Shown in pieces: positions 10,344-58,519 of a stretch of 64,000 nt of DNA. The translations under genes and the position numbers were made by a program. Below the pieces are notes generated by a model. That model did no database searches. It worked only from the letters and a program-made list of their open reading frames with translations, and was not told where the DNA came from. Numbering within the stretch: position 1 is the stretch's first letter; every line of letters begins with the position of its first letter. Source of the DNA: Pirellulales bacterium (GTDB taxonomy: Bacteria > Planctomycetota > Planctomycetia > Pirellulales > JAIMBC01); assembly GCA_023511675.1 (NCBI GenBank), contig JAIMBC010000001.1, positions 13,263-77,262 on the forward strand. The letters are read 5' to 3'.

Positions 10344-11744
10344 ATGCTAGCGCTTTGGGACCCGCGTCGTCGGATCGGGCGGCGAGAGTTCTTGAGAATT
10401 GGGGGGCTTGGCCTGGGCGCGGGACTGGCAGGCACCGGCCTTGCCGGCTTGAGTGCCTCGCACGGCTTCTCCGCCACCACTGGCCTGCCGGTCACGGGCA
10501 AATCGGTGGTGTTTCTGTTCATGCACGGCGGGCCCAGCCAGGTGGAGACGTTCGACCCCAAGATGACGGCCCCCGCCGAGATCCGCAGTGCAACAGGCGA
10601 GCTGGCCACGTCCATCCCGGGAGTCACCTTCGGCGCTTCGTTCCCCAGGTTGGCAGCGCTGGCACACAGGCTGGCCGTGGTGCGTTCCTTCGTCCCGGGC
10701 GACAGCAATCACGATCTCAAACCCATTGTCGGGCGGGACACGTACGGTGCAAACCTGGGTTCCCTGTTCGCACGCGTGGCCGGATCCAATCACCCCTTCA
10801 CCGGCATGCCCACCAATGCCGCCTTGTTTCCCCAGGCGGTCGATCCCAGCACCCAGCCCGCACAGACTGCTTTCGGCCGGTTCGATGCCACCGGCAGCTT
10901 GGGCAGCGGCACGGCCCCATTCGTGCCTGGTGCCGGCGGCAACCTGCAACAGGACATGGAGCTGCGCATCCCGGTTGAGCGGCTGGAAGAACGCCGCAGC
11001 CTGCTTGCCGAACTCGATCGCGTCCGCTTCGAGCTGGATGCGCCGGGCAAACTGGCAGGCTTGGACGATCTGCGCCGCCAAGCGTGGCAGACCATTCTCT
11101 CGGGCGTGGCGGGGGCGTTCGACCTCACCCAGGAGGATGCTGCCACCGTGGCCCGCTACGATACGGCCCCGCTGGTGCGTCCCGACCAGATCAGCCGGCG
11201 CTGGAACAACTACAACTACTATGTGGACAATGCCAAGACACTCGGCAAGCTGCTGCTGCTGGCGCGCCGGTTATGCGAAGCGGGGTGCGGCTTTGTCACC
11301 GTAACCACCAACTTTGTCTGGGACATGCACGCCGATCAAAACAACGCCGGCGTGGCGGAAGGCATGGCGTACATGGGCCCGCCGTTCGACCACGCCGTCT
11401 CTGCGTTCCTGGAAGATGTAGAGGCACGCGGTCTGGCGGACCGCATCCTGCTGGTTTGCTGTGGCGAGATCGGCCGCACGCCCCGGATCAATGCCATGGG
11501 CGGCCGCGATCATTGGGGCAATCTGGGCCCGCTGTTGCTCGCGGGCGGCGGTTGGCGGATGGGACAGGTAATCGGGCAATCGACCCGCGATGCCGGCGAT
11601 GCTCAGGCGGATCCCGTGTACATCAAGAACCTTGTGGCCACCATCCTGCACACGCTGTTCGACGTGGGACAGTTGCGCGTGGTCCGGGGGGTGCCCGAAG
11701 AGGTGCTGCGGGCGGCAAGTCAGGACGTGATCCCCGGCCTGTAG
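10344..11744 (+). CDS. DUF1501 domain protein (sulfatase-fold, Tat-signal)
   Basis: Twin-arginine N-terminus RRRIGRREFLRIGGLGLGAGLAG. FLFMHGGPSQVETFDPK and GRDHWG motifs are typical of DUF1501. ATG 10344 sits 8 nt after GGAGGAG. The track start at 10338 is a TTG. Confidence 0.85.
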   Translation: MLALWDPRRRIGRREFLRIGGLGLGAGLAGTGLAGLSASHGFSATTGLPVTGKSVVFLFMHGGPSQVETFDPKMTAPAEIRSATGELATSIPGVTFGASFPRLAALAHRLAVVRSFVPGDSNHDLKPIVGRDTYGANLGSLFARVAGSNHPFTGMPTNAALFPQAVDPSTQPAQTAFGRFDATGSLGSGTAPFVPGAGGNLQQDMELRIPVERLEERRSLLAELDRVRFELDAPGKLAGLDDLRRQAWQTILSGVAGAFDLTQEDAATVARYDTAPLVRPDQISRRWNNYNYYVDNAKTLGKLLLLARRLCEAGCGFVTVTTNFVWDMHADQNNAGVAEGMAYMGPPFDHAVSAFLEDVEARGLADRILLVCCGEIGRTPRINAMGGRDHWGNLGPLLLAGGGWRMGQVIGQSTRDAGDAQADPVYIKNLVATILHTLFDVGQLRVVRGVPEEVLRAASQDVIPGL

Positions 11745-11873: not shown

Positions 11874-12995
11874 TCAAATCGCGTCCGTACGGCCTTTGAG
11901 CGGTTGAGAGAAGCTGAGAAGGCCATCGAGGTTGGCCAGTTCTCTCTGGTAAAAGTCATTGCCGTTGCGGAGGTCGAAACGCAGGGCCAGGCGTTCGGCC
12001 TGCTGGGTAAACCAGCTTTGCAGCTCCGCTACGTGGTACTTGCCTGCCGTATCCGGGGGAGGAATGCCATCTGGGATGCGCAGCTTGAACTGGTGCGTGC
12101 CCGCCTCGCGGAGGCGGCGCAGCCAAAGGCAGGCAGCCACATAGAATGCGTACCTGTCCAGTTCCAGCGGGGCGGCGAGGGCACACGGCAGGTGGCGCTG
12201 GAAGATGCGGCGGGCCAGGTCGAGGTCTCCCGCCAACGCGGCGAACTTGAGTTGCTGCGCATGTTGCTCAAGGAACTGCTGCTTGCCGGCCACCAGCCGG
12301 TAGCCGCGAGCCTGATAGTGCCATGCCTCAGAGAGCCGGCCAAGCTTGAGCAGGGGCAAGAGAACCCGGTGCAGCGCGACATGGGGTTCTTCAACACAAC
12401 GTAAGCGGCCTTGCAACACGGGTGCCGCGGCTTCGACCGCCTTTTTGGGCTGGTTGCAAAACGCATAATAGCCAGCCTCTTCGCTGGCCTGGCAGGCAGG
12501 ACAGTCGCTCAGCTCGTCGCGCGCGCGGCGCTTGACCTGCCGGTGCATCTGCTGGGCCAGCTTGCGTTCTCCCATGCACTGGGCCACGCGGCGGCGGCAG
12601 GTGTACACGGCGTGCAGCGTCGAACCGCAGGCGCGGTAGCGGCACGCCATGTCTTCCAGCAGGGCTTCAATCTGTGCGCGACTGATCTCCGCAAACCCGA
12701 CCACATTCGTTACGATCCACTTGTACTGCCAGAGCACGTCGTGACCGTCGAACTTGGCGGGGTTGGCATCGTAACACGCCAATCGCCAGGCGAAATGCGT
12801 CAGCATTAGATCCGCCCGCCCGGAGAACGATGCTGCCGCAATGAGTTCTCCACGCAGGTCGTAGCCCAGTTCACGATCGTTGAGCGTGTCCGCCAGCGAC
12901 ACCGCCTGTTCGAGCAACGCTACCTTGGTGGGCGAGTAGGGCAGGCAGTCGGCCTGCCACCGCAAACCGTAGATCTTGTCCCGTAGATCTCTCAC
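11874..12995 (-). CDS. Uncharacterized helical (TPR-like?) Cys-bearing protein, translationally coupled to the HSP90 paralog
   Basis: GTG at 12995 overlaps the upstream TGA (GTGA) and has GGAG 5 nt upstream. The alternative ATG 13025 lacks a Shine-Dalgarno. About 373 aa, predicted all-helical, with Cys clusters (CRYRACG, CRRRVAQC, DCPACQ). I recognise no family. Confidence 0.7.
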   Translation of the reverse strand: MRDLRDKIYGLRWQADCLPYSPTKVALLEQAVSLADTLNDRELGYDLRGELIAAASFSGRADLMLTHFAWRLACYDANPAKFDGHDVLWQYKWIVTNVVGFAEISRAQIEALLEDMACRYRACGSTLHAVYTCRRRVAQCMGERKLAQQMHRQVKRRARDELSDCPACQASEEAGYYAFCNQPKKAVEAAAPVLQGRLRCVEEPHVALHRVLLPLLKLGRLSEAWHYQARGYRLVAGKQQFLEQHAQQLKFAALAGDLDLARRIFQRHLPCALAAPLELDRYAFYVAACLWLRRLREAGTHQFKLRIPDGIPPPDTAGKYHVAELQSWFTQQAERLALRFDLRNGNDFYQRELANLDGLLSFSQPLKGRTDAI

Positions 12996-15079: not shown

Positions 15080-16390
15080 TTACTCAGAAGGAGGGCAGGG
15101 ATGCCCGCCCCCCGTGGCATGGCGCAGGCGGGCAAACTCGCGGTAGCGCTGGAGGGCTGTCTGCCGGGCCTCGTCGTCCGCAAAACCGAGCGTGGCCGTG
15201 TTGAAATACGTCAGGGCGTTTGCCTGCGCACGCTCGAAGCCGTATGCCCTCAGATCCTGGCCCGTAAGCCGTACCAGCACCGCCAAGGCCACGTCGCGCA
15301 CCTGAGTCTGGATCTCCTGGTCGTTCAGCTTGAAGCTGGCACAGGCAGCCGTGTCTTCGAGCAGCGGTTCGATCTGTTCGATGTAGGCGGCCCCGCCCAG
15401 CTTGGCCACGCACAGGATGCCGTACTGGCGAATGTGGGGCGGCGTGGCGGGAGACTGCATCACGGCCAGGGCGGCCGGAATGCCCTCGGTCAGTTCATAG
15501 CGCAGAGACAGGACAATGTTCTGGTAGGTCACGGTGGAGTCGGCATCGAAGGGTCGAGCGACCCACGCGCCCAGCAGGCGGCGGACCACGTCGGTCTGGC
15601 CGGCATCGCGCATGGCCTCTTGCAGCTCTTTCTGATAGGTAAAACCGGCAATGGTGGTGGCGGTTTCGGCCGAGATGGGAACGTCCTCGCGGGACCCCAC
15701 CAGGAGCAGGGCAAGCACGCTGCCGGCCCCGGGGGGGCGGCGCTGGGTCGGATCGAAGTGTTGCATCGACTGTTGCCACTGCTGGCAGCGCGATTCGATC
15801 GCCTCTGCAACCGCTGCGGCAGAGTTCTCAGCCCCTTGCAATAGCCAGCGTTCTGCGCGGAGCATCTCCACAAACAGGCGCCGGCTGGCGGCGTTGTTGC
15901 CTGCCAGGGCCCGGTAGCGCTCCCAGCAGGGAAGGTCGTGCTGCAAACAGCCCTCCACATCAGCGCTGAAGGCCTCCAGCCTGGCCTCAAAGTCGAGGTC
16001 CATGATGTGCGCCAGGATCTGCCGCGCACGCCGGCGCACCTCCGCATCGGGGCTGGCAAGCGCTTGCTCCAATGGCTGGCGTGCGGGCAGACCGATCTCC
16101 GCCAGCCGCGCTGTGGCACGTTCCCGCACCCGGTAGCGGCTGTCTCCAAGCTGGCTGATCAACCGCTCGATCTCACCTGCCGGACCAGCCGCTCTGGCAG
16201 GCATTGCCTGTGCCGCCAGAAGCATACACCATCCCGCACAGACCAGGCCACGCACCCAAGAACTGCGTCCACGTTGTGCCACGGTTAACAGGAGATAGCC
16301 TTGCCTCACGGCAGGTCGCCTCCAGGATGTGCTCACTTCAGGACCGGTGTACCGTCGCGGTGCGCGCCGCGGTGATCGAAACACGTCCAC
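15080..16390 (-). CDS. Hypothetical secreted protein with HEAT/armadillo-like helical repeats
   Basis: Signal-like segment VRGLVCAGWCMLLAAQAMPARAAG, then repeats of the type SRYRVRERATARLAEIG / DAEVRRRARQIL. The start is uncertain: GTG 16390 as tracked, or internal GTG 16255. Confidence 0.6.
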   Translation of the reverse strand: MDVFRSPRRAPRRYTGPEVSTSWRRPAVRQGYLLLTVAQRGRSSWVRGLVCAGWCMLLAAQAMPARAAGPAGEIERLISQLGDSRYRVRERATARLAEIGLPARQPLEQALASPDAEVRRRARQILAHIMDLDFEARLEAFSADVEGCLQHDLPCWERYRALAGNNAASRRLFVEMLRAERWLLQGAENSAAAVAEAIESRCQQWQQSMQHFDPTQRRPPGAGSVLALLLVGSREDVPISAETATTIAGFTYQKELQEAMRDAGQTDVVRRLLGAWVARPFDADSTVTYQNIVLSLRYELTEGIPAALAVMQSPATPPHIRQYGILCVAKLGGAAYIEQIEPLLEDTAACASFKLNDQEIQTQVRDVALAVLVRLTGQDLRAYGFERAQANALTYFNTATLGFADDEARQTALQRYREFARLRHATGGGHPCPPSE

Positions 16391-22457: not shown

Positions 22458-22673
22458 GGCAAAACCTCCCTAGATGGGTGCTGGAACGACGGCTATGCAA
22501 GCTGGCAGCCACTCCATTGTTGCCCGCCCGCCGCGCAGGGCTGCGCCCCCTGCACCGGTTTGACCCTCTGCCCGCCCTGTGATGGACGTAAGTTCTTTAG
22601 CTTCCGAGTCTTATCCCCTTCACTCTACCGACGTACTCTGCGGCACATTGCCGGCTCGCCACAGGGCGGAAAC

Positions 22674-22694
22674 TTAGTGTAATGATAACACTAA
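22674..22694. promoter_or_regulatory. AT-rich perfect inverted repeat (operator, promoter or hairpin candidate)
   Basis: TTAGTGT-aatgata-ACACTAA (7-bp arms, 7-nt loop), followed by TAATAT. This is the only strongly AT-rich patch in the 0.8-kb divergent intergenic region between the SPFH gene and the GNAT-like gene. Confidence 0.4.
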
Positions 22695-22788
22695 TATGCC
22701 CGGTGTGCAAACTCTGCGGGAGCTAGGAGCGAGCACGCCGCTGCCAGCGTCGCCACGCTCGAGTCTGCCCCAGTGGGAGAGCCACGAT

Positions 22789-22921
22789 GCGAGGGGAAGA
22801 TGCAATCGAGCAGATCTCCGAGGCGGGTGATTATCGGCCCCCCATGTCGTGAGGGGTAGATCGTTGGCGGAGCTGCCGGTCAAGGCAGGCGTGACGCCGC
22901 TCTTGCGGTGAGGGGTAGAGA
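22789..22921. repeat. Three degenerate direct repeats, core G(C/T)GAGGGG(A/T)AGA, at 60- and 59-nt spacing
   Basis: GAGGGG cores at 22791, 22851 and 22910. About 14-16 of 20 nt match between neighbouring copies (cccatgtcgtGAGGGGtaga type). The intervening sequence is unrelated. The unequal 60/59 spacing (59 is not a multiple of 3) argues against a coding repeat. Confidence 0.5.
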
Positions 22922-23281
22922 TGGGAGGACCGTGGCGGCGACGGTGTCATGACGTTGAGGTCCATGGGCGCGGAGACCATGCCAGCCTGCGACAAGAATG
23001 TGCCGCTTGCAGCGCAAAGCTGCTCGATCGCCGTCTGCGTGTACATCGGTTTGTTCAGCCTTCTCGGTTTGCCTAACATCGGCAGCACGGGCCGTTGGCC
23101 GCACCCAGAGCAGATGGGGAGGTTGCCTTATAGCTCTGTTCGCAGTGTGCGGCAGGCGACATGCACCTCTTGCCCTCTTGCCCTAGGCGGCACGAGGTCT
23201 ACATTGACCGAGGGTTGCGGGGCAGGTAGGCTTCGCCACTTTGAGGCTTAGCTAGAGAACCGCGGAGTGGAACGCTGTGCG

Positions 23282-37061: not shown

Positions 37062-40000
37062 ATGCGATCCTGGCCAGATTCACACAAGCAGCGCTCCAAG
37101 ACCGCACGCCGGCACGGCCTAATAGCCCATGCCCCACGACGCCGTTTGGGCTTGCAATGGCTCGAGGATCGTCGCCTGCTGACCGTCGACATCACGGCCT
37201 TTGATTTTACCCTCGGCCAGTTCACGTTTACCGGCGACCAGACTGGTGCCAACGAGGTCGACCAGCTTCAACTCGGCGTCTTCGGCGGTTTGCTCACGCA
37301 CAACCTCCTTGCAATTGGCGGTACGGGAGACTACCTCAGCGCTTTCGACTTCGATCCCACCGCTGGCGTGCAGACCATTGCGGTCGGGGCCGGCACCAAC
37401 CCGCTGATCACTGTCAACCTCTTGGGTGGTGACGACAGCCTCACAATTACGACCGACGGGCTGATTGGCATACACCCCATCGTCTACGACGGCGGCACAG
37501 GCTCCGACACGCTCAGCCTCTCGGGCAGCACCGCCGGCCATGCGGTTACTTTGAGCGCAAACGGAGATGGCTGGAACGGTGGCACCACGGGGATCAGCTT
37601 CTTCAACGTCAACGTCGTGGAAGGGTCGGCAGGCGACGATACGTTGAACGTGCAATCCACCTTCGCCGCAATTACTTACATCGTCGATGCAGGCCCGGGC
37701 AACGACGTGATCAACGTGTCCGCCGACGCGCCGGCCAATACAGATACCCTGGATTTCATTCTGGGCGCGCTGTTCATCATCGGCAACGCGGGCAGCGACA
37801 CGCTGAACATCAGCGATGCCGGCCGTGCCGGGGCCAGCACCTTCCTGCTGACGAACACCACGCTGGACCGCACGGGCATGGCCCAGATCACGTATGGCAC
37901 GGTGGAGGCGTTCAACCTGGACACGGGCGACCAGGCCACCAGCGACGACACGATCAACATCCAGTCCACCGCCGCGGGTACCACCTACACCGTGGACGCC
38001 GGCGCGGGCAACGATGTGATCAACGTCTCCAGCGATGCGCCGGTGAATGCGGGCGATCTGAACGGCATCCTGGGTGCGCTCACGGTGAACGGCGGGGCGG
38101 GCACGGACACGCTGAACATCAGCGATGCCGGCCGGGCTGGGGCCAGCACGTTCCTGCTCACGGGCACCACCCTGAACCGCACGGGCATGGCCCAGATCAC
38201 GTATGGCACGGTGGAGGCGTTCAACCTGGACACGGGCAACCAGGCCACCAGCGACGACACGATCAACATCCAGTCCACCGCCGCCGGCACGGTGTACACC
38301 ATTAACGCCGGCCAGGGCAACGATGATGTGAACGTTTCGTCAGATGCCCCCACCATGGCGGGTACGCTCGACGGCCTGCTGGGACCGATCACCTTGAATG
38401 CCGGGGCTGGCACCAACGATCTGTTCTTCAGCGATGCCGGCCGGGCCGCGGGTGCAACGTTTGATCTGACGGCCAGCACGCTTGCCCGCACGGCGATGGG
38501 GCTGGCCACCTATAATGGCTTTGCCACCTTCCGGCTCGATGCCGGCACGGGGGACGACACGCTGAACGTTGTCTCTACCAACGCCGCCACTGTCTATACG
38601 CTCAATACCGGCCTGGGGAGCGACACAGCCAACGTGCTATCTCTGGCCGTGGGCGGCGACACGACGCTGAACATGGGTGGCGGCGACGATACGGTGAACG
38701 TTTCCTCCACGGCACCCAGCCTGCTGGGCTCGCTGGATGGCATTCAGGGCTTGTTCGCTCTGGACGGGGGGGCTGGCACGGATCACGCCAGTTTCAGCGA
38801 TCTGGGGGATCCGGACGCCAACGTGTACACCGTTACCCACGAATCTGTGTTCCGTGGCGGCATGGGAGACGTGCAGCACAGCAACCTGGAGATCCTCACG
38901 CTGAACACGTCTGCCGGCAATGATCGGGTGAACCTGCGGCTCGATACCGCGGCTCCGGCACTTCCCAACGTGGTGCAGCTCGACGGCGGCGCGGGCGGCC
39001 TGAACCTGTTCTGGGTGCTGGGCACGTCCCTGAACGATACCGTGACGGTGGGCAATTATGTGGTCGGCCCCCCCGCCGCCATCCTCGCCGGTGATCCGGT
39101 ACAGATCCAGAACTTCGCCTCCATGTTCATGTTCGGCTTCGAGGGCGACGACACGTTTACCAATAATACGGCCACCCCCTCGCTGTTGAGCGGCGGAACG
39201 GGGACGGACAATCTTACCGGGGGCTCGAACAACGACTTGATCTTTGGTGGTGCCGCGGGCGACAACCTCTTCGGCAATGCGGGCGACGATCAGATCTTTC
39301 TCGATCTGGACATCGCCCTGGACGGCACCATCTCAGCGGTCGCCGTGGCAGGCGGCGTGGGGAACGGCGGGCCAGGAAACGACGTTGTCATCGCCTCGTC
39401 GCCGGCGGCCATCGTGAGTGGTGCCGAAGTGTTCCAGCCCCTCGGCGTGCTGGACGTGATAAGCTGGCTCACCGGGCGTCCCATCCCGCCGGACGTCGTG
39501 GTGGCCATCATCGGTGCACTGCCCTCGCACCCGCTGGTGCAGCAGTTGGCCCAGTTCTCGCCGCCGCCTGCGGGCCTGCCCGCAAGCGTGCAGCTCCCGC
39601 TCAATCCCTTCGTGGCGGAGGCATACCAGACCCTGCTGGGCCGCACGGTGACGGACTCCGACCCCGGCGCCCAGTACTGGACGAATCGGGCCGCCTCGGG
39701 CACGAGCATCGAGGAGATCCGCCTGGGCTTCCTGGCGAGTGCCGAGTACTTTGTACGTGCGGGCGGCACGAACGCCGCCTTTGTTGCGGCCCTGTACCGC
39801 GACCTGCTGGGCCGGAATGGTGCCTCGGGTGAAATTGCCTACTGGACGCAGCTTCTGGCTCAGGGTGCTTCGCGGTGGCAGATCGCTTATGGCATCATGC
39901 ACAGCCAGGAGGGGCTGCACTACCAGGTGAGCGCGATCTACGCCAAGCTCGGCCACCCGGTACCCGCGGCGGCGGATCTGAACCGACTGGCCATGGTGGC

Positions 40001-47221: not shown

Positions 47222-47833
47222 GAGTCTTCACCTTGTGGTAGACCGAATCCGTCAGGGGCCAACGACCTTCCACATAGTTATACCCGCTTGAACTGCCCGT
47301 CGTTGCAGGTGCCGGGACTGCGCCGGCGTCATCGCGGCAGGCGCGCTGGGTGCCCGCATCGAGGCCGCCAGTGGTTGCAGGCGCGGGGCTTGCGCCGGCG
47401 CCGTGTCGCCGTCGAGCCGCACTGGTGTGCTGCCCCCCACAGGCCTGGTGTGCCTGAGGCGCCCGGGATGCCCACATCGGCCGACTGCTTGCTACCCGTA
47501 CAGGCCTGGCACGCCGTGGCCAGGCCGGGATTGCCCCGCCTTCGCTCGTAAAATGGCGTGTGCCTACTGGGTAGAGCCCTTCCCTCACCGTCGTGCTCCA
47601 GGCGCCCAGCAGCCGCTGGCCTTGTTGGAATCGGTGACTGGGGGGCAATCGTTGCGTTGTAAAGAAACACCAATCCGCCGGCGCGGAGCCCTCTTAGCGT
47701 CCGCGCCGTCTGAATGGAGGCGCCTTCCACCCTCGCGCAGCCTGCTTCTGCTGCACCAATGTTGGTACAGCCGGCACCACGGCGGCTGCCGCAAGCGGGC
47801 AGATCTTGCCAGCTTGATTTGCCGCCTGGCAGC

Positions 47834-49205: not shown

Positions 49206-50087
<882 letters not shown>

Positions 50088-50281: not shown

Positions 50282-50370
50282 CTGGCGCCCACGTGGGCGC
50301 ATTCGTTTGGACACAGGCGAAGATTGACGGGCTGCCGACGAACTGGCGCCCACGTGGGCACATTCGTTTG
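50282..50370. repeat. Two 28-nt direct repeats (27/28 identical) separated by a 33-nt unique spacer: CRISPR-like mini-array or tandem operator
   Basis: CTGGCGCCCACGTGGGCGCATTCGTTTG at 50282-50309 and CTGGCGCCCACGTGGGCACATTCGTTTG at 50343-50370, a period of 61 nt. Each contains the 16-nt palindrome GCGCCCACGTGGGCGC (one G-to-A change in copy 2). No third copy and no cas genes in the window. Confidence 0.75.
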
Positions 50371-50588
50371 AGCGGTTCATCGTGCGTCATGGCCCTGCTG
50401 TTGCTGGGGGGGACGGAGCGGCTGCCCATCAAATCCGTTATCGCGCGCGTGCCGGGCCAAGTAGCCCCTACTTCGACGGAGGCGCGTGCGGCTCTAAAAC
50501 AGGGCGTTGCGGCGGCCTGAGGGCAAATGCCTTGCCCTACTCGTGCCAGCCGATTCAACAACGCTGCCTGGGCGGCTAACATGAACAG

Positions 50589-51995
50589 ATGCTCTATGTT
50601 CAGTTTGGCTGTCCGCGGTGCGGTGCCATTTCACAGATCGACGCCTCGATGGCTGGCCGACAGGCGACGTGCCCAGTCTGTGGCGGCGTGCTCGTGGTTC
50701 CCGCAGGGGTGCCGTTCCAGGCGGCGCCACCCGTGGGTGGTTGGCAAAGTGCGGTGCCGCCAGGGCCGCCACCCGTGGTCCCTGGCTCCGGTGCTGTGCC
50801 GCCCATTGCAGCCGGCCCCCCGCCTGTAGCCCCGCCGCAAAGGCTTTCCGTCCCACCTCCAGTGGCCGCACCACCTACCACGGCTGGACCGCCGCCGGTG
50901 GCCGGACCGCCGCCCGTTGCTGCACCACCTCCCGTTATTCCACCGCCTCCCCCAGCCGGACGGCCACCCGCAGCCGCACCACCTCCGGTCGCAGCAGCAG
51001 CTCGCGAGGCAGCACCGCCTCCCGGGGCAGCCTTGCCGCCTGCAATGGCGCCGCCACACTCGGGCGGTGCGCCACCTGAGACCAGCCTGCCACCTCTTGC
51101 GGCTCACCCTGTCTCGCAAAGTGTTCCACAGCCGCGCGGGCCCGCTGCTGCGGTTGGGCCGGGCTCGGCAAGCCCGCCGGCAGCCCCGCCCCCTGTGCCC
51201 ACATCGACGGTGCCGGTGGCTGTACCCGCGCATCCGCCTCCTGCGGCCGCCCCGGTAGGGAGTGTGCACGCTCCCTCACCGTCCACAGCCGCTGCCAGCG
51301 GCCAACCGGTAACTGAGCCGCCGCCGCAAGCCGCCATGCCCAAGTCTGCGGCGGGCGGTGCAGCTAGGCCGGGGGTGTCCCCGCCCGTCATGGAGAGCCC
51401 GCTAACGGCGCATCAAACCACTACGGTCGCAGAGCCGCCAGCCTGCAAATCGCCGCTCGTGGGTACTGCACCGCCTGGCGAGAGTGCCAGTCCTACCGCG
51501 GCAGACAGCTCAAGCGATGCTGGTTCATCACCACTAGCCGCTTCAGCGGGCCGAGATTCGGGCACGGCCGCCACAATGACGCTGCACGCTCCCAGCGTGC
51601 CGGCATCTCACGCTTCTGCTGCGCGGGCCGCGCCTTTAGGGCCCGTCGTTCCGACAGTACCGGCGGCATCAGCGCCGCTTGCCGGTGGCGCGGTCTCGGT
51701 CGGCACGGGGGTGGCGCCCGCGCGCGCGGAGCAAGCAGGCAGTCGAACGATCGCCCAACCAGTGCCTCCGCAGCCGCAGCTCGCTGCCGGCATGCCCGTA
51801 CCGGTAACGAGCGCTACCACGGCACGTTCGGGGGAGACACGAGCGACTTCCTCGGCAACCGGCCATTCGAGCAGCCTCGTACGCCGCCTGACGCCTGAGG
51901 AGAAGCAACTGCGGCGCGCACGCCGCAACCTGGTCACGGCGTGCGTGTGTGTGGTGATTCTGATCATCGTGCTGGCTATCTTGCTGCAGTTGTAG
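50589..51995 (+). CDS. Zinc-ribbon protein with ~400-aa Pro/Ala-rich disordered region and C-terminal transmembrane tail anchor
   Basis: N-terminal CPRCG...(16 aa)...CPVCG ribbon. PPPV/APPP low-complexity repeats. Basic stretch RRARRN followed by the terminal helix LVTACVCVVILIIVLAILLQL. Confidence 0.75.
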   Translation: MLYVQFGCPRCGAISQIDASMAGRQATCPVCGGVLVVPAGVPFQAAPPVGGWQSAVPPGPPPVVPGSGAVPPIAAGPPPVAPPQRLSVPPPVAAPPTTAGPPPVAGPPPVAAPPPVIPPPPPAGRPPAAAPPPVAAAAREAAPPPGAALPPAMAPPHSGGAPPETSLPPLAAHPVSQSVPQPRGPAAAVGPGSASPPAAPPPVPTSTVPVAVPAHPPPAAAPVGSVHAPSPSTAAASGQPVTEPPPQAAMPKSAAGGAARPGVSPPVMESPLTAHQTTTVAEPPACKSPLVGTAPPGESASPTAADSSSDAGSSPLAASAGRDSGTAATMTLHAPSVPASHASAARAAPLGPVVPTVPAASAPLAGGAVSVGTGVAPARAEQAGSRTIAQPVPPQPQLAAGMPVPVTSATTARSGETRATSSATGHSSSLVRRLTPEEKQLRRARRNLVTACVCVVILIIVLAILLQL

Positions 51996-52267
51996 GGCCG
52001 GCCATGCTGCCGTGTGCCCTGCGGCTGCGACGATTCTTGCGCAGAACGCCGCCTCCCTCAGTCTGGTTGACGCCGATCCTGTTGAATCGGCGCTGCTTCG
52101 AGTATTCCTGGGCAGAACGCCGCCTCGCTCATGCGGTAGGCGGCCGTGCATCGAGTTGCGCGGCGCGGAACATGCGTGCGGTAAGGGGGCGAGGTCAGCG
52201 GGCGCGGGGGGCGGAACGCCCGGTCCTGCGACACGAGCGGAGCCGCATTGCCGCTGCATGTCTTGCC

Positions 52268-53458
52268 TTACGGAGCAGCGCGGGACGGTGCCTGGGGCAA
52301 TGGCACCTGTGCCGGTTCGCGCTGGCGCCACAGCGCCAGGGCATGAGCGGCGTGCGAGAGGAAACCATAGCCTTCTTGCACGTCCTTCTCCGGCATCTCG
52401 GAGATGGTCCGCACCAGCCATTGGCCGGCACGGACCAGCACCTCGCGCGGTGGCAGAATCGGTTCCGGTGCCAGAGCCCACCACTCCATGGGATGGCCGG
52501 TGGCCAGAATCCAGTTTGCCAGGGTGTTCTCATACGCTGCGCTGGAGCGCTGGGAGCCGACGTCGTAGCCGGGCCAGGTGTGCGTCCAGTAACCTTCAGG
52601 ATGCTGGTTTTGCACCAAAAGCTGCGTCACGTTCTGCAAGTATTCCGTGACGCGCTGTCGCATGGCCGCGCTCAGCAGCGGCTGCTGTTCGTCAACGCGC
52701 AAGAAGACTACCAGCGTGTGCATGCGATGGTTGGCCAGGCACACGCCTTGTGGCAGCTCCTGCCGCATGATACGTTCGGCCAGCCGGTCAAATGTAATCT
52801 CCTGCCCCTCTCGCGTGCGCCAGCGTCGGACGTGCGGCATGTAGAGGGCAAATACCATGGCGGACCATTCGTACTCTGCCTGGTTCAGGCTGAAGTCTCT
52901 CAGGCATTGATCGAACATGGCACGCACTGTGGTCTGTTGCCGCGGCGTGCGCAGCGGGTAATCAAGGGGCGTACCCGTTTCCGCCAGACATCCCAGCACA
53001 TGATCGTAATGGCTCGAGCTGTGCTGGCCCTCCTGCACCCGGACGCGCACGCCTCGCTCCTCGGTATCGATCAGCAAGGGAGCCGTCTCTGGACCCCACG
53101 CCTCGGCGAACCGCCCATGGTCTGTCAGAAGCTGCCGCATCTCTTCGCCCGAGAGGCAGTTGGGGTCGTCGAACGCCGTCTGTACGCCCCAACAGCGCAG
53201 GGCGTGATCGACAAAGTTAATCTTCGGCTTCGGCACGCGAAACTGAGGCCGCAGCCGCCACAACACCAGGGCAAGCTGTTCGTCGGTGACAATTTCCGGG
53301 ATGTCATACAGCGGACCCACCCGCACCGGCTCGTTTCGCGGCTGCGGCAGAGCCCAGTCCTGCTCCAGCCGGGCCCAGCGCACGCTCGCCCAGGCGCTGA
53401 CTCCCCCCCAAAATGCAAGTTGCAGGATCCCAAAACCCAGCAGCCTGCGGCGAGCCAT
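52268..53458 (-). CDS. Signal-anchored hypothetical protein (~396 aa) with a single QxxxGxW (QW-like) motif
   Basis: ATG 53458 follows AAGAGGTG. N-terminus MARRRLLGFGILQLAFWGGVSAWASV. QNQHPEGYW fits the QxxxGxW motif of prenyltransferase/terpene-cyclase alpha-toroid repeats. That is weak evidence. Confidence 0.65.
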   Translation of the reverse strand: MARRRLLGFGILQLAFWGGVSAWASVRWARLEQDWALPQPRNEPVRVGPLYDIPEIVTDEQLALVLWRLRPQFRVPKPKINFVDHALRCWGVQTAFDDPNCLSGEEMRQLLTDHGRFAEAWGPETAPLLIDTEERGVRVRVQEGQHSSSHYDHVLGCLAETGTPLDYPLRTPRQQTTVRAMFDQCLRDFSLNQAEYEWSAMVFALYMPHVRRWRTREGQEITFDRLAERIMRQELPQGVCLANHRMHTLVVFLRVDEQQPLLSAAMRQRVTEYLQNVTQLLVQNQHPEGYWTHTWPGYDVGSQRSSAAYENTLANWILATGHPMEWWALAPEPILPPREVLVRAGQWLVRTISEMPEKDVQEGYGFLSHAAHALALWRQREPAQVPLPQAPSRAAP

Positions 53459-53652
53459 CGTCACCTCTTTATCCACCATTTGTCATCTCACCCTTCATAA
53501 CCCAGTATGGCACATCGCCCTGCACGCCGTAAGCCGCTATCGCCATGCTCGTCTCAGCGCCGCTAACGCCATCCCGCCATATGGCAGGCTTACCCCAGCC
53601 TGCCTCGCCAGGCCGTGCCGCAGGCTGCACATGGCGCATGGCACAGCAATCC

Positions 53653-55086
53653 TCAACTTGTGGCGTGCCCGAATCGTGCCGAGACCTCCTCTACCTGGCG
53701 TGCGCGCGTTGCCGCCCATGCCAGGAACAACCAGAAACTCAGCAACGCGTAAGTCCTAAGAGAGAAAACCAGCAGCGAGTATTTGGGCGTGGCCGGTGTG
53801 GGAACGCCGCCGCTCAGAAACCCGACCAGAATCGGAGGCCACCACACGGGCAGCAGCAGCACCACCACCCCCAGCACAACGAGACGGCTTTCCGAAATAC
53901 TGGACCAGACCTGTGCCGCGGGTAACACCAGCATCAACAGATAGTGGGGCCAACAAACGGGGCTGATCAACAGCATGGTCACGACGAACAGCCCAAGACT
54001 CAGTTCGCGGGCTTGCGGCGTACGTGCACGCCACGCGATCCAGCACGCCGCACCCACCAACAACGATGCTGTGACATAGTTGCCAGCCTTCGCCAACCAC
54101 GGGTTGTAGACCATCGGCGTGACAAGGCCACCTTTCGTCCCCGGATCAAAAAGCCGCGACCACCAGCCCAGCACCGAGAGGTTGCCCCACCCCGCTCGCC
54201 ACTCATGCACGCGCGGTACCACCTCCCATGCGTACTGGTAGTGTGTGTCTAGTCCAAACACGAGCACGGTCATACCGCACCAGGCTAGCGCTGCCAGCAA
54301 TGCAGCAACTACCAGCCGCCAGCGACGTTGCATGGCAAAGAACGCGACCAGCAAAGCGGGGTAGAGCTTGACGGCCACGGCCGTGCCTAGAAGCACTCCC
54401 GCAAGTCTATCCTGCTGGCGCCGCGCGGCCGCCCAGGCGCCGACCAGCAGAAACAACAGCAGCAGGTTCAGTTGTGCAAAAAGTGTCTGAGCGAGCAGCG
54501 GATCGAACAGCAGGGCGAGAGTCACGACCACCAGCAACGTTCGCCAGCTCTCGGCCAGCTTGCATTCCACATTGATCACCCAGAGTGCAGCAGCCCCCAG
54601 CACCAGCGACAGCAGGTTCCAGGCGAGCGTGGCACGGGGATAATCGAGCCAGAACATGGGCATGGCCATCAGCACCGACGCCGGCGGATGTGCGTTCACT
54701 TCCACTGCTTGCTGTTCTGTTGGGTCAATCTTAATCCCAAGATAGCGGTCCACAGCCAAGACCTGCTCCTCGTAGATAGGAAGGCCCCGCCGCCAATTCT
54801 GTACGGAAGACCACTCCTGAAAAAAGTCGACCAGCACCCTCGACGGCGGCATCAATGTCTGCACGAACACGGGCCCGCGCCACAAGAGGACGATCAAAGC
54901 CAAGAGCGCCCAGACCGCAGTGCGTATACGTGTCCAGTACGCGCCGGGATGGCGCCGCGCCGCAACCGTTTCATGGGCCAGCAAGCCGAAAAATGCGGTG
55001 ATTAACGAGACCGCTATGATGCGTGCTTCCAGCTTCGTCAGATAACCCAATACCGCGAGGCTAGCCATAGAATGCAACATGGCCAT
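53653..55086 (-). CDS. GT87/DUF2029-family polytopic glycosyltransferase (GT-C type), paralog 2
   Basis: At least 10 TM helices. DFFQEWSSVQNWRRGLPIY, VNAHPPASVL and AVKLYPALLVAF resemble DUF2029 signatures and are paralogous to the upstream gene. Start is ATG 55086, or TTG 55101 directly after the upstream stop. Confidence 0.8.
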   Translation of the reverse strand: MAMLHSMASLAVLGYLTKLEARIIAVSLITAFFGLLAHETVAARRHPGAYWTRIRTAVWALLALIVLLWRGPVFVQTLMPPSRVLVDFFQEWSSVQNWRRGLPIYEEQVLAVDRYLGIKIDPTEQQAVEVNAHPPASVLMAMPMFWLDYPRATLAWNLLSLVLGAAALWVINVECKLAESWRTLLVVVTLALLFDPLLAQTLFAQLNLLLLFLLVGAWAAARRQQDRLAGVLLGTAVAVKLYPALLVAFFAMQRRWRLVVAALLAALAWCGMTVLVFGLDTHYQYAWEVVPRVHEWRAGWGNLSVLGWWSRLFDPGTKGGLVTPMVYNPWLAKAGNYVTASLLVGAACWIAWRARTPQARELSLGLFVVTMLLISPVCWPHYLLMLVLPAAQVWSSISESRLVVLGVVVLLLPVWWPPILVGFLSGGVPTPATPKYSLLVFSLRTYALLSFWLFLAWAATRARQVEEVSARFGHATS

Positions 55087-55101
55087 GGTAGCGTTCAGCA
55101 A

Positions 55102-56472
55102 TCAAAGTGCTAGAATACACGGTTCTGCCCCGGGGGCGTCTGCTGAACATGTACCTTGCCGCGTCCCTTCGCCAGGCCAGGCAACAATGCCCCAGAGCAC
55201 CAGCAGCGAGAAAAAGCCAATGGAGAACAGCGAGATCGACTCGAGCGGTTGAATTCTCACATGTGCCATCTGCTCCCTGCCATACCAGAGGGCCCACAAC
55301 AGCACCGGGTTCAGCCACAGACCCGCAGATGACAGCGCGAATGCTACCCGCTGTCGCCAGCAGTTCCGACTGGATAGCCAGCTCAGGATCCAGGGCAGCA
55401 ACAAGAGCACGAAGTAGTGATCCCAGCTAATCGGGGAACATAGCAACATCCCCGCCAAGCATGTCCCCCAGGCACGGCTCTGCTGGCTTACCGTGCCGGC
55501 GCGCCACGTCACGTACGCAGCTACCCCGCTCACCAAAGCGCTGCCTGCCAGTGCCAGAACGTTACCCACAGCCGGTGCCGGCAATAAAGCAACGAACCGC
55601 GAGCCAGGCGGCGCCATCAGTCTGAGCCAGAAGCCGTGCCAAGATGCATTCAGCCCCGCCAGCCGCCAGCTCTCTACCCTGGGCAATACGTCGGTAAAGT
55701 ATTCCACGTACGGCGCCCCACCAAATAGCAGCCAAGCTATCAGGATCATGGCCAGTGCGCCCGCGAACATTCCCAGTAGAGCCCGTCCATTGCGCCGACA
55801 CGAGAAATACACCAGCAGATAGGCAGGAAATAGCTTGATCGCTGCTGCCGCGCCCACGGCGGCTCCGCTAGCCCAGCTCAGACCGCGCCGATCGCAAAAC
55901 CAAGCGGCCGTTAATAAAGCGAGCAGCACGGCGTTGAGCTGTCCCTGGTCGAACTGTGCACGCACTGGGTTAGAACAGAATAACACCGCCAGTGGTGCCA
56001 GCGACGCGGCTGTTACACGGAGCCTCAGTTCCCTGGCGGTCACGTACGCACTCGCCGCAACAAGACAGATGCCTAGCAGGTTCCAGATTTGCAGTGCCGT
56101 AGGATACTCCAGGTGTGCCAGCGGCAACACGAGCAGTACGGCCGGCGGCGGATGTGCATTGACCTCGACCTCGCCCGGCTGGAGTTCGCGGTGCAGGTAC
56201 GCTCGCACGGTGTGCCGCTGCGACGTGTACAGATCGCGTCCCTGCAGCCAGTTGCGGGCCGACGCCCACTCCTGAAAAAAGTCCTTTAGCCCGCGATCCC
56301 GCGGCAGCAGGCTGCCGAGGATCGGCAGGCCGTTAAGCCCTATGGCGGCAGCGGCGGCCACAGCCCAGGCTATGTGCCGCACCGCCCTGCTGGAGACGGC
56401 GGCCGGATGCATAAGCCATCTACCCTGCTTAACGACCCGCGGCCCCTCCAGACTGATCCGCCGCAGAGACAT
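55102..56472 (-). CDS. GT87/DUF2029-family polytopic glycosyltransferase (GT-C type), paralog 1
   Basis: DFFQEWASARNWLQGRDLY, VNAHPPPAVLL and AIKLFPAYLLVYF. ATG 56472 has GGAG 4 nt upstream and overlaps the upstream gene by 44 nt. Alternative ATG 56412. Confidence 0.8.
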   Translation of the reverse strand: MSLRRISLEGPRVVKQGRWLMHPAAVSSRAVRHIAWAVAAAAAIGLNGLPILGSLLPRDRGLKDFFQEWASARNWLQGRDLYTSQRHTVRAYLHRELQPGEVEVNAHPPPAVLLVLPLAHLEYPTALQIWNLLGICLVAASAYVTARELRLRVTAASLAPLAVLFCSNPVRAQFDQGQLNAVLLALLTAAWFCDRRGLSWASGAAVGAAAAIKLFPAYLLVYFSCRRNGRALLGMFAGALAMILIAWLLFGGAPYVEYFTDVLPRVESWRLAGLNASWHGFWLRLMAPPGSRFVALLPAPAVGNVLALAGSALVSGVAAYVTWRAGTVSQQSRAWGTCLAGMLLCSPISWDHYFVLLLLPWILSWLSSRNCWRQRVAFALSSAGLWLNPVLLWALWYGREQMAHVRIQPLESISLFSIGFFSLLVLWGIVAWPGEGTRQGTCSADAPGAEPCILAL

Positions 56473-58519
56473 GGGACTCCGCCGCAGTGCCGCGGCCAGG
56501 CTCCGCGGCCCCACGCTGCTCCGGTCGGTTCGACGCGGCAGCATTGGCCGGGACTGAAGTTCCCGGCCCCTGCCGGATGAACACCGCCGCCTGGCCATCT
56601 TCATAGCGCAGCCCCCAGCCGCTTCGCTGGCGCATGGCCGCCAGCAGGGACTGCATCAGCTCCTTGTCGACGATCACGGTGGTCACGCGGTAGCGGGCCA
56701 GAGCCTCTTCCCAGCCCTCCCGCACGCTGGCAATGCGGGTATAGTCGCGGTAGACGCGGGGTGGAATGAGGTGCACATGCGTCGTGGCAAACAGCTTCAT
56801 GCCGGCCGGCCCACGGTAGGCCAGCCAGTCGCCCCACCACTGAGGGTTAAAGACTTGCCCCTGCGGGGGATTCGCATGCAGCCACCGTGTCAATTCCAGC
56901 GGCGTCTGGCGGCTGTAGAGCCTTTGCTCGCTGCGTGGCGTACCACCCAGAATGGGACGCGAGAGATCGGACAGCGCAAACACGACCCAAAGAACAAACA
57001 GTGTGGCCGCGCACCAGTACCAGTGGCCGCGTGCAGCCAAGACTGGCAGGGTGCTGCCACTCTCAGACACATTGGCGCTGGCCGTGTCCTGGGCAGAGGG
57101 CCTCGCGCCCGAAGAAGGGCTGTCCGAGCTATTCTGTGCAGGCGCCGGCCCCCTGGCAGCGGCTATAGCGGTCCCCCCAGCAGCGGAGTCCCCTTCACTT
57201 CGGTATGCTGCTAGCCTGCCCGCGAGCGCTGCTAGTTGTGCCGGCTCCCCGGGCGAGGCGCCTGCACTTGCATCCTGCGCCCCTGCCGATCCTCGCGCGG
57301 GAGCAGCCAAAGGGGTGCCTGCCGCCGTGGCGTCCTTCTTGAGCGGATGACGGCCTGCCAGACCACGGATCGTCCCGCCCAGATGTCGGATCAGCACCAG
57401 AGACGCTGCCATGCTGAACCAACCGACCATGCGCAGGCTGGTGGCAACCAGGAACGAGAACAACAGCCAAGCCAGCACCTCCCATACCTGGATTCGCAGT
57501 GGGCTTAGGCGTGCGAGGATCACCGCGGCGAGCCAGGCCAGGGCAAATTGAGCACCGGTGGGACTGGCCAGCACCAGCGGGTACCACTCCGTAATGTCTC
57601 GTAAATTCTCATTTGCCGAGAATCGCAGCACCTCGATCCACAAGTCCATTCCATAGGGGTTTACCAGCGTGGCCGCGGCTGACAGTTCGGCCAATAGGAT
57701 CGTTTGGCGCACACGACTGTCGGCTAGCACGCCCCACAGGCTGCGCCGCTGCCAGGCAGACTCCACGATCTGCCCGCCTGCCAGGCAGACAAGCATTGCC
57801 AAACCACACACGAACGAGCCGTGCAGATTGGCCCACAACATCATCACCAGCGGCAGCAGCACCCACGTCCACAGAGGAATACCCCCCGGCGCCGTGCTTT
57901 GCCTGGGGCCGAGGTCACCGCCCAGCCACGCCGCAGGGCGCTCGCCGGCGGCGGCCGCCTCCTCGCCGCGCTGCAAGCTGCGGTCGATAACCACGGCCAG
58001 CCAGAGTACGGCTGCAAAACAAATGCTGCCCAGCACCTCTGGGCGCAGCGTCATCAAGCGGCTCCAGCCAATGATCACGACCAGCCCCACGCCCAGCAAT
58101 CCCAACCACGTGTAGCCGCTGCGTAGCACAAATGCCCGGGCCAACAAGCCGTATGCAGCGGCCATCAGCATGGCAAACAGGACAGTCAGGCCAGCAGCTC
58201 CTGCTAGCTTGTGCGTGATAGCCAGCACCACTTGTCCTAGCCATGCCGAGTCTACCAGCGGCATGCCCTCGGCCAACGGCTGCCAGGGATCCTCCGTGGG
58301 CAAGGCCTGATGCTCGAGGATCCATTCTCCGAACGCCACGTGCCCCCAAAGATCCGTGTGGAACAGGGGCAGGTAATTAAAGTATAGAAACAGTCCCCCC
58401 AACACCAGAGCGTATGCCAGGTGTAGCGGGGTAAAGCGAGCGGCCCAGGCAGCACCCGGCCCGGGCGCCGCCGCTGCCGGAGGGACCATGCTCTGCTTTT
58501 GGCCTGTGGCTGCACTCAT
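56429..58519 (-). CDS. Large polytopic membrane protein (~696 aa) with low-complexity loop and C-terminal soluble domain; GT-C / polymerase-like
   Basis: ATG 58519 lies 10 nt after the TPR gene stop. At least 10 TM helices. First-loop motif FHTDLWGHVAFGEWILEHQALPTEDPW. C-terminal domain ...NPQWWGDWLAYRG.... Family not recognised with confidence. Confidence 0.7.
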   Translation of the reverse strand: MSAATGQKQSMVPPAAAAPGPGAAWAARFTPLHLAYALVLGGLFLYFNYLPLFHTDLWGHVAFGEWILEHQALPTEDPWQPLAEGMPLVDSAWLGQVVLAITHKLAGAAGLTVLFAMLMAAAYGLLARAFVLRSGYTWLGLLGVGLVVIIGWSRLMTLRPEVLGSICFAAVLWLAVVIDRSLQRGEEAAAAGERPAAWLGGDLGPRQSTAPGGIPLWTWVLLPLVMMLWANLHGSFVCGLAMLVCLAGGQIVESAWQRRSLWGVLADSRVRQTILLAELSAAATLVNPYGMDLWIEVLRFSANENLRDITEWYPLVLASPTGAQFALAWLAAVILARLSPLRIQVWEVLAWLLFSFLVATSLRMVGWFSMAASLVLIRHLGGTIRGLAGRHPLKKDATAAGTPLAAPARGSAGAQDASAGASPGEPAQLAALAGRLAAYRSEGDSAAGGTAIAAARGPAPAQNSSDSPSSGARPSAQDTASANVSESGSTLPVLAARGHWYWCAATLFVLWVVFALSDLSRPILGGTPRSEQRLYSRQTPLELTRWLHANPPQGQVFNPQWWGDWLAYRGPAGMKLFATTHVHLIPPRVYRDYTRIASVREGWEEALARYRVTTVIVDKELMQSLLAAMRQRSGWGLRYEDGQAAVFIRQGPGTSVPANAAASNRPEQRGAAEPGRGTAAESHVSAADQSGGAAGR

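Follow-up and report, generated by a model that had tools for sequence, protein, structure and literature searches.

A 28-nt sequence that occurs twice around a 33-nt insert, in an intergenic gap of a Pirellulales-like planctomycete, may be the recent trace of a single spacer-type integration at a repeat-like palindrome, now decaying neutrally. We favor this reading tentatively and hold it with rather less than even confidence. On this model, a 33-bp segment would have been inserted into an intergenic site bearing a palindrome, with 28 bp of the target duplicated on either side. The enzyme would have been a type I-E-like Cas1-Cas2 integrase acting at a non-canonical, repeat-like site (a 'neo-CRISPR' locus or isolated mini-array), and the product would since have been inherited vertically, its architecture unchanged, while drifting by point mutation. 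That the unit is neither an active array nor a conserved guide is well supported.

A repeat pair in the gap between sucD and a zinc-ribbon gene

The window, by which we mean the whole 64,000-nt stretch of DNA that was analysed, is housekeeping DNA with priA, polA, rho, nusB, ftsY, sucCD and GT87 glycosyltransferase genes. The initial annotation had reported a 28-mer present twice (27 of 28 positions identical, 61 nt apart, with a 33-nt spacer) in a 501-nt gap between sucD and a zinc-ribbon gene. We confirmed the coordinates and the mismatch count, and gene coordinates bear out the gap, which runs from the sucD stop codon at 50087 to the zinc-ribbon ATG at 50589. The features of the locus are:

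49206-50087, + strand: sucD (succinyl-CoA ligase alpha; Pfam), the upstream neighbour, with homologs up to 94% identity
50264-50398: weak outer inverted repeat GCCGAGCCATGACG / CGTCATGGCCCTGC, 86% complementary, bracketing the unit
50282-50309, + strand: repeat copy 1, 28 nt, CTG + GCGCCC-ACGT-GGGCGC + ATTCGTTTG
50310-50342, + strand: spacer or insert, 33 nt, GACACAGGCGAAGATTGACGGGCTGCCGACGAA, unique in the window
50343-50370, + strand: repeat copy 2, 28 nt, with the imperfect palindrome GGGCAC
50520-50538, + strand: hairpin AGGGCAA-atgcc-TTGCCCT, 51 nt upstream of the zinc-ribbon ATG
50589-51995, + strand: gene for a zinc-ribbon, Pro-rich protein with a C-terminal TM segment, the downstream neighbour

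Copy 1 reads CTGGCGCCCACGTGGGCGCATTCGTTTG, and its only mismatch to copy 2 is a G to A change at 50360; the unit has a period of 61 (28 + 33 + 28). In both ungapped and gapped comparisons, identity stops sharply at the 28-nt edges and the spacer and the two flanks are mutually unrelated. The spacer and flanks do not align, as the initial annotation had stated, and simple tandem duplication of a 61-nt unit is therefore ruled out. Neither the repeat nor its core or tail was found a third time in the 64 kb at up to 3 mismatches, and 100 dinucleotide shuffles of the window gave no match to the 28-mer at the same threshold. With just two copies in the 64 kb and in ~70 kb of related contigs, a dispersed REP or MITE element is likewise ruled out.

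The identity between the copies includes 12 bases that are not palindromic. The 16-nt palindrome GCGCCC-ACGT-GGGCGC had been ascribed to the repeat as a whole; this stands for copy 1 of the window, where it is perfect, whereas it is imperfect (GGGCAC) in copy 2 and in both copies of the relatives described below. As RNA, copy 1 of the window folds into a hairpin of -13.1 kcal/mol and copy 2 into one of -7.7 kcal/mol. The region of the outer inverted repeat has fold z-scores of -2.4 (+ strand) and -4.1 (- strand), which are low largely because the two palindromes pair with each other; the outer inverted repeat is probably incidental.

The gap has no coding signal in any frame by a codon-usage log-odds score self-trained on the long ORFs of the window, and the ORFs of 82-156 aa that overlap it score negative and look spurious. 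The initial argument that a period of 61, not being a multiple of 3, makes a coding repeat unlikely agrees with this score, and on the two grounds together a coding repeat is ruled out. Searches of ~40 ORFs across the 64-kb window with Pfam, PADLOC and NCBIfam found no Cas families, upholding the earlier remark that no cas genes lie nearby, and none appeared in the Pfam lists of the relatives' loci. Rfam returned nothing at gathering thresholds and noise at E <= 10, with no CRISPR-DR family, placing the repeat outside the described repeat families; no match to a known RNA family was found. A homology search with the zinc-ribbon protein gave no match, probably owing to low complexity. The hairpin noted earlier at 50520-50538 is present, and its stem is kept in five close relatives, in which a 1-nt deletion shortens the loop.

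Several observations concern other parts of the window. A 519-aa + strand ORF at 51941-53500 is a spurious antisense frame; opposite it lies a 403-aa gene (52268-53479, minus strand, codon score +134). Homologs of its product number in the hundreds among planctomycetes, no Pfam family covers it, and in distant relatives the gene sits among Tad pilus genes (TadE, RcpC, prepilin peptidase). A 1252-aa protein that has DUF4214 and RTX-type repeats is encoded in part by three 309-nt repeats in tandem (37633-38550; 80% and 61% identity).

Inheritance and probable drift of the unit among relatives

A 96%-identical homolog of the uncharacterised neighbour gene at 52268-53479 (minus strand) led us to five metagenome contigs (L205-L209) that are syntenic with the window; their identity to it is 94-96% overall and ~96-97% across the intergenic gap. 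The repeat-spacer-repeat unit and its spacer are shared by all five. Copy 2 shows no difference from the window in any of them, while copy 1, which reads CTGGCGCCCACGTGGGCACATTCGTGTG in the relatives, differs from the window's at two positions, 50299 (G in the window, A in the relatives) and 50307 (T in the window, G in the relatives). Differences between the window and these contigs thus amount to 2/28 in copy 1, 4/33 in the spacer and 0/28 in copy 2 (2/56 for the repeats), compared with 12-14/412 in the rest of the gap and ~1.5% in sucCD. The spacer has changed faster than the surrounding non-coding DNA (p about 0.015-0.04) and the repeats no more slowly than it. There is no spacer turnover between strains, since a single spacer with 4 point differences is found in the 5 relatives.

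Both copies in L205-L209 have the imperfect palindrome (GGGCAC), indicating that the perfect palindrome of copy 1 in the window is a derived single-base change. By parsimony, the two repeat copies would have been 28/28 identical, and imperfect in their palindromes, when the window lineage split from these relatives; the RNA hairpin of this ancestral type reaches -7.7 kcal/mol as against -13.1 kcal/mol for the derived copy. The unit is inherited, with its architecture frozen and without detectable constraint. The identity of the ancestral copies and the pattern of substitutions suggest that the unit arose recently and has since drifted, without being maintained by selection.

More distant relatives were available in L210-L213, in which the neighbour protein is 81-83% identical and which were recovered from the samples that also yielded the closest SucD homologs, L081-L084. 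These contigs keep the zinc-ribbon gene (with 78% conservation over the N-terminus in L210 and L212) and have sucCD elsewhere, so the two genes are not adjacent. Homology of their DNA to the window breaks off at the sucD stop codon and picks up again at ~50550, and segment 50088-50550 has no homolog in relatives at ~80% protein identity; this gap in homology indicates that the segment carrying the unit is specific to the species-level lineage of the window. A search for relatives through SucD returned only rearranged loci with unrelated DNA 3' of sucD. No empty, pre-insertion allele was found: the close relatives all carry the unit (5/5), and the next relatives lack the whole segment.

Two further observations concern these relatives. 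In L210 (12371-12500), the conserved start of the zinc-ribbon ortholog (MPFVQFGCPRCG...) lies at 12371, whereas the gene caller had set it 129 nt further upstream and had thereby wrongly put one L210 repeat copy inside the called gene. In addition, a hypervariable island at ~52900-55700, comprising the 3' part of the 403-aa gene, the GT87 gene at 53653-55101 and the start of the GT87 gene at 55102-56604, diverges from L205-L209 by 17-20%, against 1.5-4% for flanking DNA. This pattern suggests that alleles of this glycosyltransferase (cell-surface) locus have been replaced by recombination.

Resemblance to CRISPR repeats and the case for an integrase

A metagenome scan for two GCCCACGTGGGC cores lying 35-60 nt apart returned at least 120 matches. 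Among the matches listed were protein-coding tandem repeats, many paired TTTTGCCCACGTGGGCAAAA palindromes and genuine arrays. The arrays among the matches listed include L090 and L111, with period 61 and repeats GTC-GCGCCCACGTGGGCGC-GGATGTATCG / -GGATAGACCG, and L100, with the I-C-like repeat GTCGCGCCCACGTGGGCGCGTGGATTGAAAC and period 65. No cas genes were found in the fetched flanks of L090 and L111, which are putatively of type I-E as judged from repeat sequence and period alone. The palindrome pairs form a recurrent element of their own: soil metagenome contigs L092, L094, L097, L101, L106, L107, L113 and many others carry pairs of long perfect palindromes of the form (G)TTTTGCCCACGTGGGCAAAA(C), spaced 52-70 nt from each other, with flanks that are unrelated and outer stem bases that vary.

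The unit is closest in form to the type I-E arrays. It shares with L090 and L111 the period of 61, a 3-nt 5' flank and the 16-nt stem-loop GCGCCC-ACGT-GGGCGC, and it has the I-E geometry of a 28/29-nt repeat, a 33/32-nt spacer, a 6-7-bp stem and a 4-nt loop. The initial annotation had placed its dimensions in the type I range, and 28 + 33 is indeed the duplicon plus spacer of type I-E (PMC5039180). In Escherichia coli the duplicated I-E unit is 28 bp, a size fixed by molecular rulers that are anchored on two inverted repeats around 4 nt (PMC5039180). The unit differs from the arrays in its tail, ATTCGTTTG as against GGATGAATCG / GGATAGACCG, and in having two repeats only, the same spacer in all relatives and no cas genes within 64 kb. 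The conserved 3' handle of I-E repeats has the consensus ATAAACCG / ATGAACCG, which the 9-nt tail of the unit does not resemble. The stem had also been compared with that of type I-C, and the same stem-loop does occur in the I-C-like repeat of L100. It is all that the two share: I-C repeats are 31-32 nt long with an 11-nt ...ATTGAAAC handle and a period of ~65-68, whereas the unit has 28-nt repeats and a period of 61. A ParB parS site (TGTTNCACGTGNAACA) has the same central CCACGTGG; its arms are TGTT/AACA, those of the unit GCGC, and with no canonical parS cluster or parAB genes nearby this candidate was rejected.

Experiments have demonstrated that off-target integration can give rise to new arrays (Nivala et al. 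2018, as cited in 10.1101/148544 and PMC7054753), and it is one of three origins proposed for arrays distant from cas genes (Shmakov et al. 2020, as summarized in PMC13142298). Like the neo-CRISPR loci and isolated mini-arrays outlined in those accounts (Nivala, Shipman & Church 2018; Shmakov et al.), the unit has a spacer-sized insert in a directly duplicated, repeat-length target with sharp edges, lies far from cas genes and has a target with a repeat-like palindrome. It differs in that the duplicated sequence matches known repeats in the stem-loop only and not in the handle. Natural isolated repeats, as these accounts describe them, are usually identical or nearly so to the cas-adjacent repeats of their own genome; for the unit, the comparison covered the 64-kb window.

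We infer that a CRISPR integrase would have made the unit, and hence that a system of this kind would be present in the lineage or have been so in the past. The exact 28/33 geometry and the stem-loop of L090 and L111, with the same 3-nt offset, argue for this reading, as do the recent drift, the restriction to one lineage and the sister units with similar insert sizes described below. To our knowledge, CRISPR integrases are the only enzyme class that makes such products, and we know of no other bacterial process that gives 25-40-bp target duplications around ~33-bp inserts. Against the reading stand the lack of a cas gene in the 64-kb window, a tail unlike I-E or I-C handles, the absence of an Rfam CRISPR-DR match, the failure to find a protospacer and the lack of an empty-site allele among the relatives.

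The 28-mer is absent from 185,579 GTDB species genomes; a 22-mer of the repeat (GGCGCCCACGTGGGCRCATTCG) had 0 matches in the JGI contig collection and a 19-mer had 0 in IMG/VR. The 22-mer is nevertheless present in JGI contigs Ga0137716_10000510, Ga0373637_0004146 and others (L205-L209) that the scan missed, which makes absence in collection scans weak evidence; the JGI DNA collection is a subset of the contigs covered by the protein index. The spacer had no match among INPHARED phages or IMG/VR contigs, in which planctomycete viruses are poorly sampled. Within the 64 kb, the longest word that it shares with any other site is 11 nt, and there is no partial match of at least 12 nt.

Sister units and rival explanations

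The unit is the cleanest of several sharply bounded two-copy intergenic units in the clade, each with a sequence of its own that has no other copies. The others are:

Window 10133/10205: block 19 nt, insert 53 nt, period 72, 21/28 identical over a 28-nt frame; upstream of a DUF1501 gene
Window 22849/22908: block 12 nt, insert 47 nt (about 24 and 35 nt when extended), period 59, 12/12 identical (19/24 extended); in the 22458-23266 gap
Window 47295/47367 (47295-47328 / 47367-47400): block 34 nt, insert 38 nt, period 72, 28/34 identical; in the divergent region between a DUF4013 gene and sucC
Window 52021/52092 (52021-52060 / 52092-52131): block 40 nt, insert 31 nt, period 71, 33/40 identical
L210 11328/11389 (11328-11412): block about 27-29 nt, insert 34 nt, period 61, 22/24 identical in the best ungapped segment
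L210 12473/12534 (12473-12561): block 28 nt, insert 33 nt, period 61, 21/28 identical
L210 15174/15247 (15174-15286): block 40 nt, insert 33 nt, period 73, 78% identical
L081 8400/8471 (8400-8509): block 39 nt, insert 32 nt, period 71, 34/39 identical

In the well-defined units the inserts are ~31-34 nt and the blocks ~28 or ~40 nt, and the sister units have no palindromes. The 52021/52092 pair, whose insert contains a GCCGAT/ATCGGC hairpin, lies between the convergent zinc-ribbon and 403-aa genes and is also found in L205-L209. The L210 and L081 units flank the zinc-ribbon ortholog on both sides, lie in the gap near a Glu_synthase-family gene and lie upstream of sucC. Intergenic pairs of at least 18/28 number 27 in the window, compared with 14.8 +/- 4.2 in shuffles, and 13 of the 27 have offsets of 59-75, an offset statistic that is post hoc. 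In 860 kb of SucD loci from other bacteria there were 0 pairs at period 61 and 2 at period 71, one of them the L081 unit. No two-copy units were found in the L212/L084 lineage, which favors a lineage-specific mutational process over a regulatory architecture that is conserved; a conserved architecture upstream of orthologous genes was accordingly not upheld.

We consider it doubtful, though worth stating, that the intergenic DNA of the clade is peppered with single-insert footprints, with blocks of ~28 or ~40 bp and inserts of ~31-34 bp, made by a CRISPR integrase or by an undescribed process. The implied density is ~0.5 footprints per kb of intergenic DNA, far above reported off-target integration, and it speaks against an integrase. 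Because the sister units are non-palindromic and several have ~40-nt blocks, which is not a standard repeat length, a process unrelated to CRISPR could explain the whole set. Under this first alternative, insertion-duplication or local duplication, for example by repair-associated templated insertion at staggered breaks, would have made all the units, and the 28/33 geometry and the stem-loop would be coincidental. The sister blocks are also unrelated to one another, a looser threshold spreads the offsets over 59-75 with no two sharp peaks, and the 12-nt core GCCCACGTGGGC occurs in many unrelated contexts among the matches listed. By contrast, the three period-61 units all have ~28/33 geometry, and no alternative process known to us yields such products. 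We judge this explanation somewhat unlikely, while taking it seriously.

A second alternative is that the copies form an operator pair, bound by a dimeric protein that regulates the zinc-ribbon gene or the 3' end of sucCD, with the two sites ~6 helical turns apart and acting cooperatively or through looping. In its favor, the 16-bp palindrome with its CACGTG core is found 219-307 nt before the zinc-ribbon ATG, and the periods of 61 and 71-73 come near to 6 and 7 turns. L210 also has a different, unrelated 28-nt pair (21/28) at period 61 upstream of its ortholog, a coincidence with a chance of ~0.002 by the window background. However, the identity extends over the 12 non-palindromic bases, both palindromes are imperfect in the relatives and no purifying selection is visible when the repeats are compared with neighbouring non-coding DNA. 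The 64 kb contain no other copy of the motif and no regulator gene lies nearby. Neither L210 nor L212 has the motif upstream of its zinc-ribbon ortholog, L212 lacks any pair, and similar pairs lie between convergent genes, where there is no promoter. The palindrome's position and the L210 pair lend the operator pair proposed in the initial annotation some support, but on balance it is not supported, and we regard it as unlikely.

It is improbable, in our estimation, that the copies act as RNA hairpins with U-rich tails, either as tandem intrinsic terminators or stabilisers at the end of the sucCD transcript or through alternative long-range pairing in the zinc-ribbon leader. Copy 1 ranks first among the terminator-like sites of its 20-kb segment, the orientation agrees with that of the + strand genes, and the two palindromes can pair mutually. 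The tail, however, has only 5 U in 9 nt and the ancestral hairpin is weak (-7.7 kcal/mol). Terminator-like sites occur at or modestly above chance across the window and mostly inside genes, rho is present, no such element lies 3' of sucD in the relatives and no Rfam family matches.

Least probable of all, and in our view very much so, is a working isolated mini-array or CreA/CreR-like guide served by Cas proteins encoded elsewhere: its architecture and stem-loop would be compatible with class 1 crRNA processing, and mini-arrays with regulatory spacers exist (10.1101/2023.03.03.530964), but those described lie in or next to cas loci, with conserved spacers that are partly complementary to promoters (10.1101/2023.03.03.530964), whereas the unit, which like CreA and CreR mini-arrays has two repeat-like sequences around one spacer, has no cas locus within 64 kb, no complementary target of at least 12 nt in the window, a handle unlike those of known subtypes, a stem weakened in both copies of the relatives and a fast-evolving spacer that outpaces its surroundings. 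A functional array requires at least 3 repeats with different spacers, and there are two copies in the 64 kb. The same inherited spacer in 5/5 relatives and its evolution at or above the neutral rate mean that the unit is not an acquiring array and that its spacer is not conserved as a CreA guide would be; the orphan-array and CreA-like readings put forward initially both go unsupported on these points, the latter also for want of an adjacent cas locus.

Returning to the integration footprint, the unit would be a small scar, probably functionless, and its annotation as a CRISPR array or regulatory guide is unwarranted. Its interest lies in being a clean natural candidate for off-target integration, a process documented for the most part in engineered E. 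coli and inferred for a few genomes. The unit is also an entry point to the wider repeat-insert-repeat pattern of the clade, and to the question of whether integrases or another process routinely write short insertions into the chromosome. If the CRISPR adaptation integrase proves responsible, the units would be natural evidence, on a large scale, that off-target spacer integration is a recurrent mutational force acting on non-coding DNA, with this unit as its youngest example; if not, the pattern would point to an undescribed insertion-duplication mechanism with ruler-like control of length.
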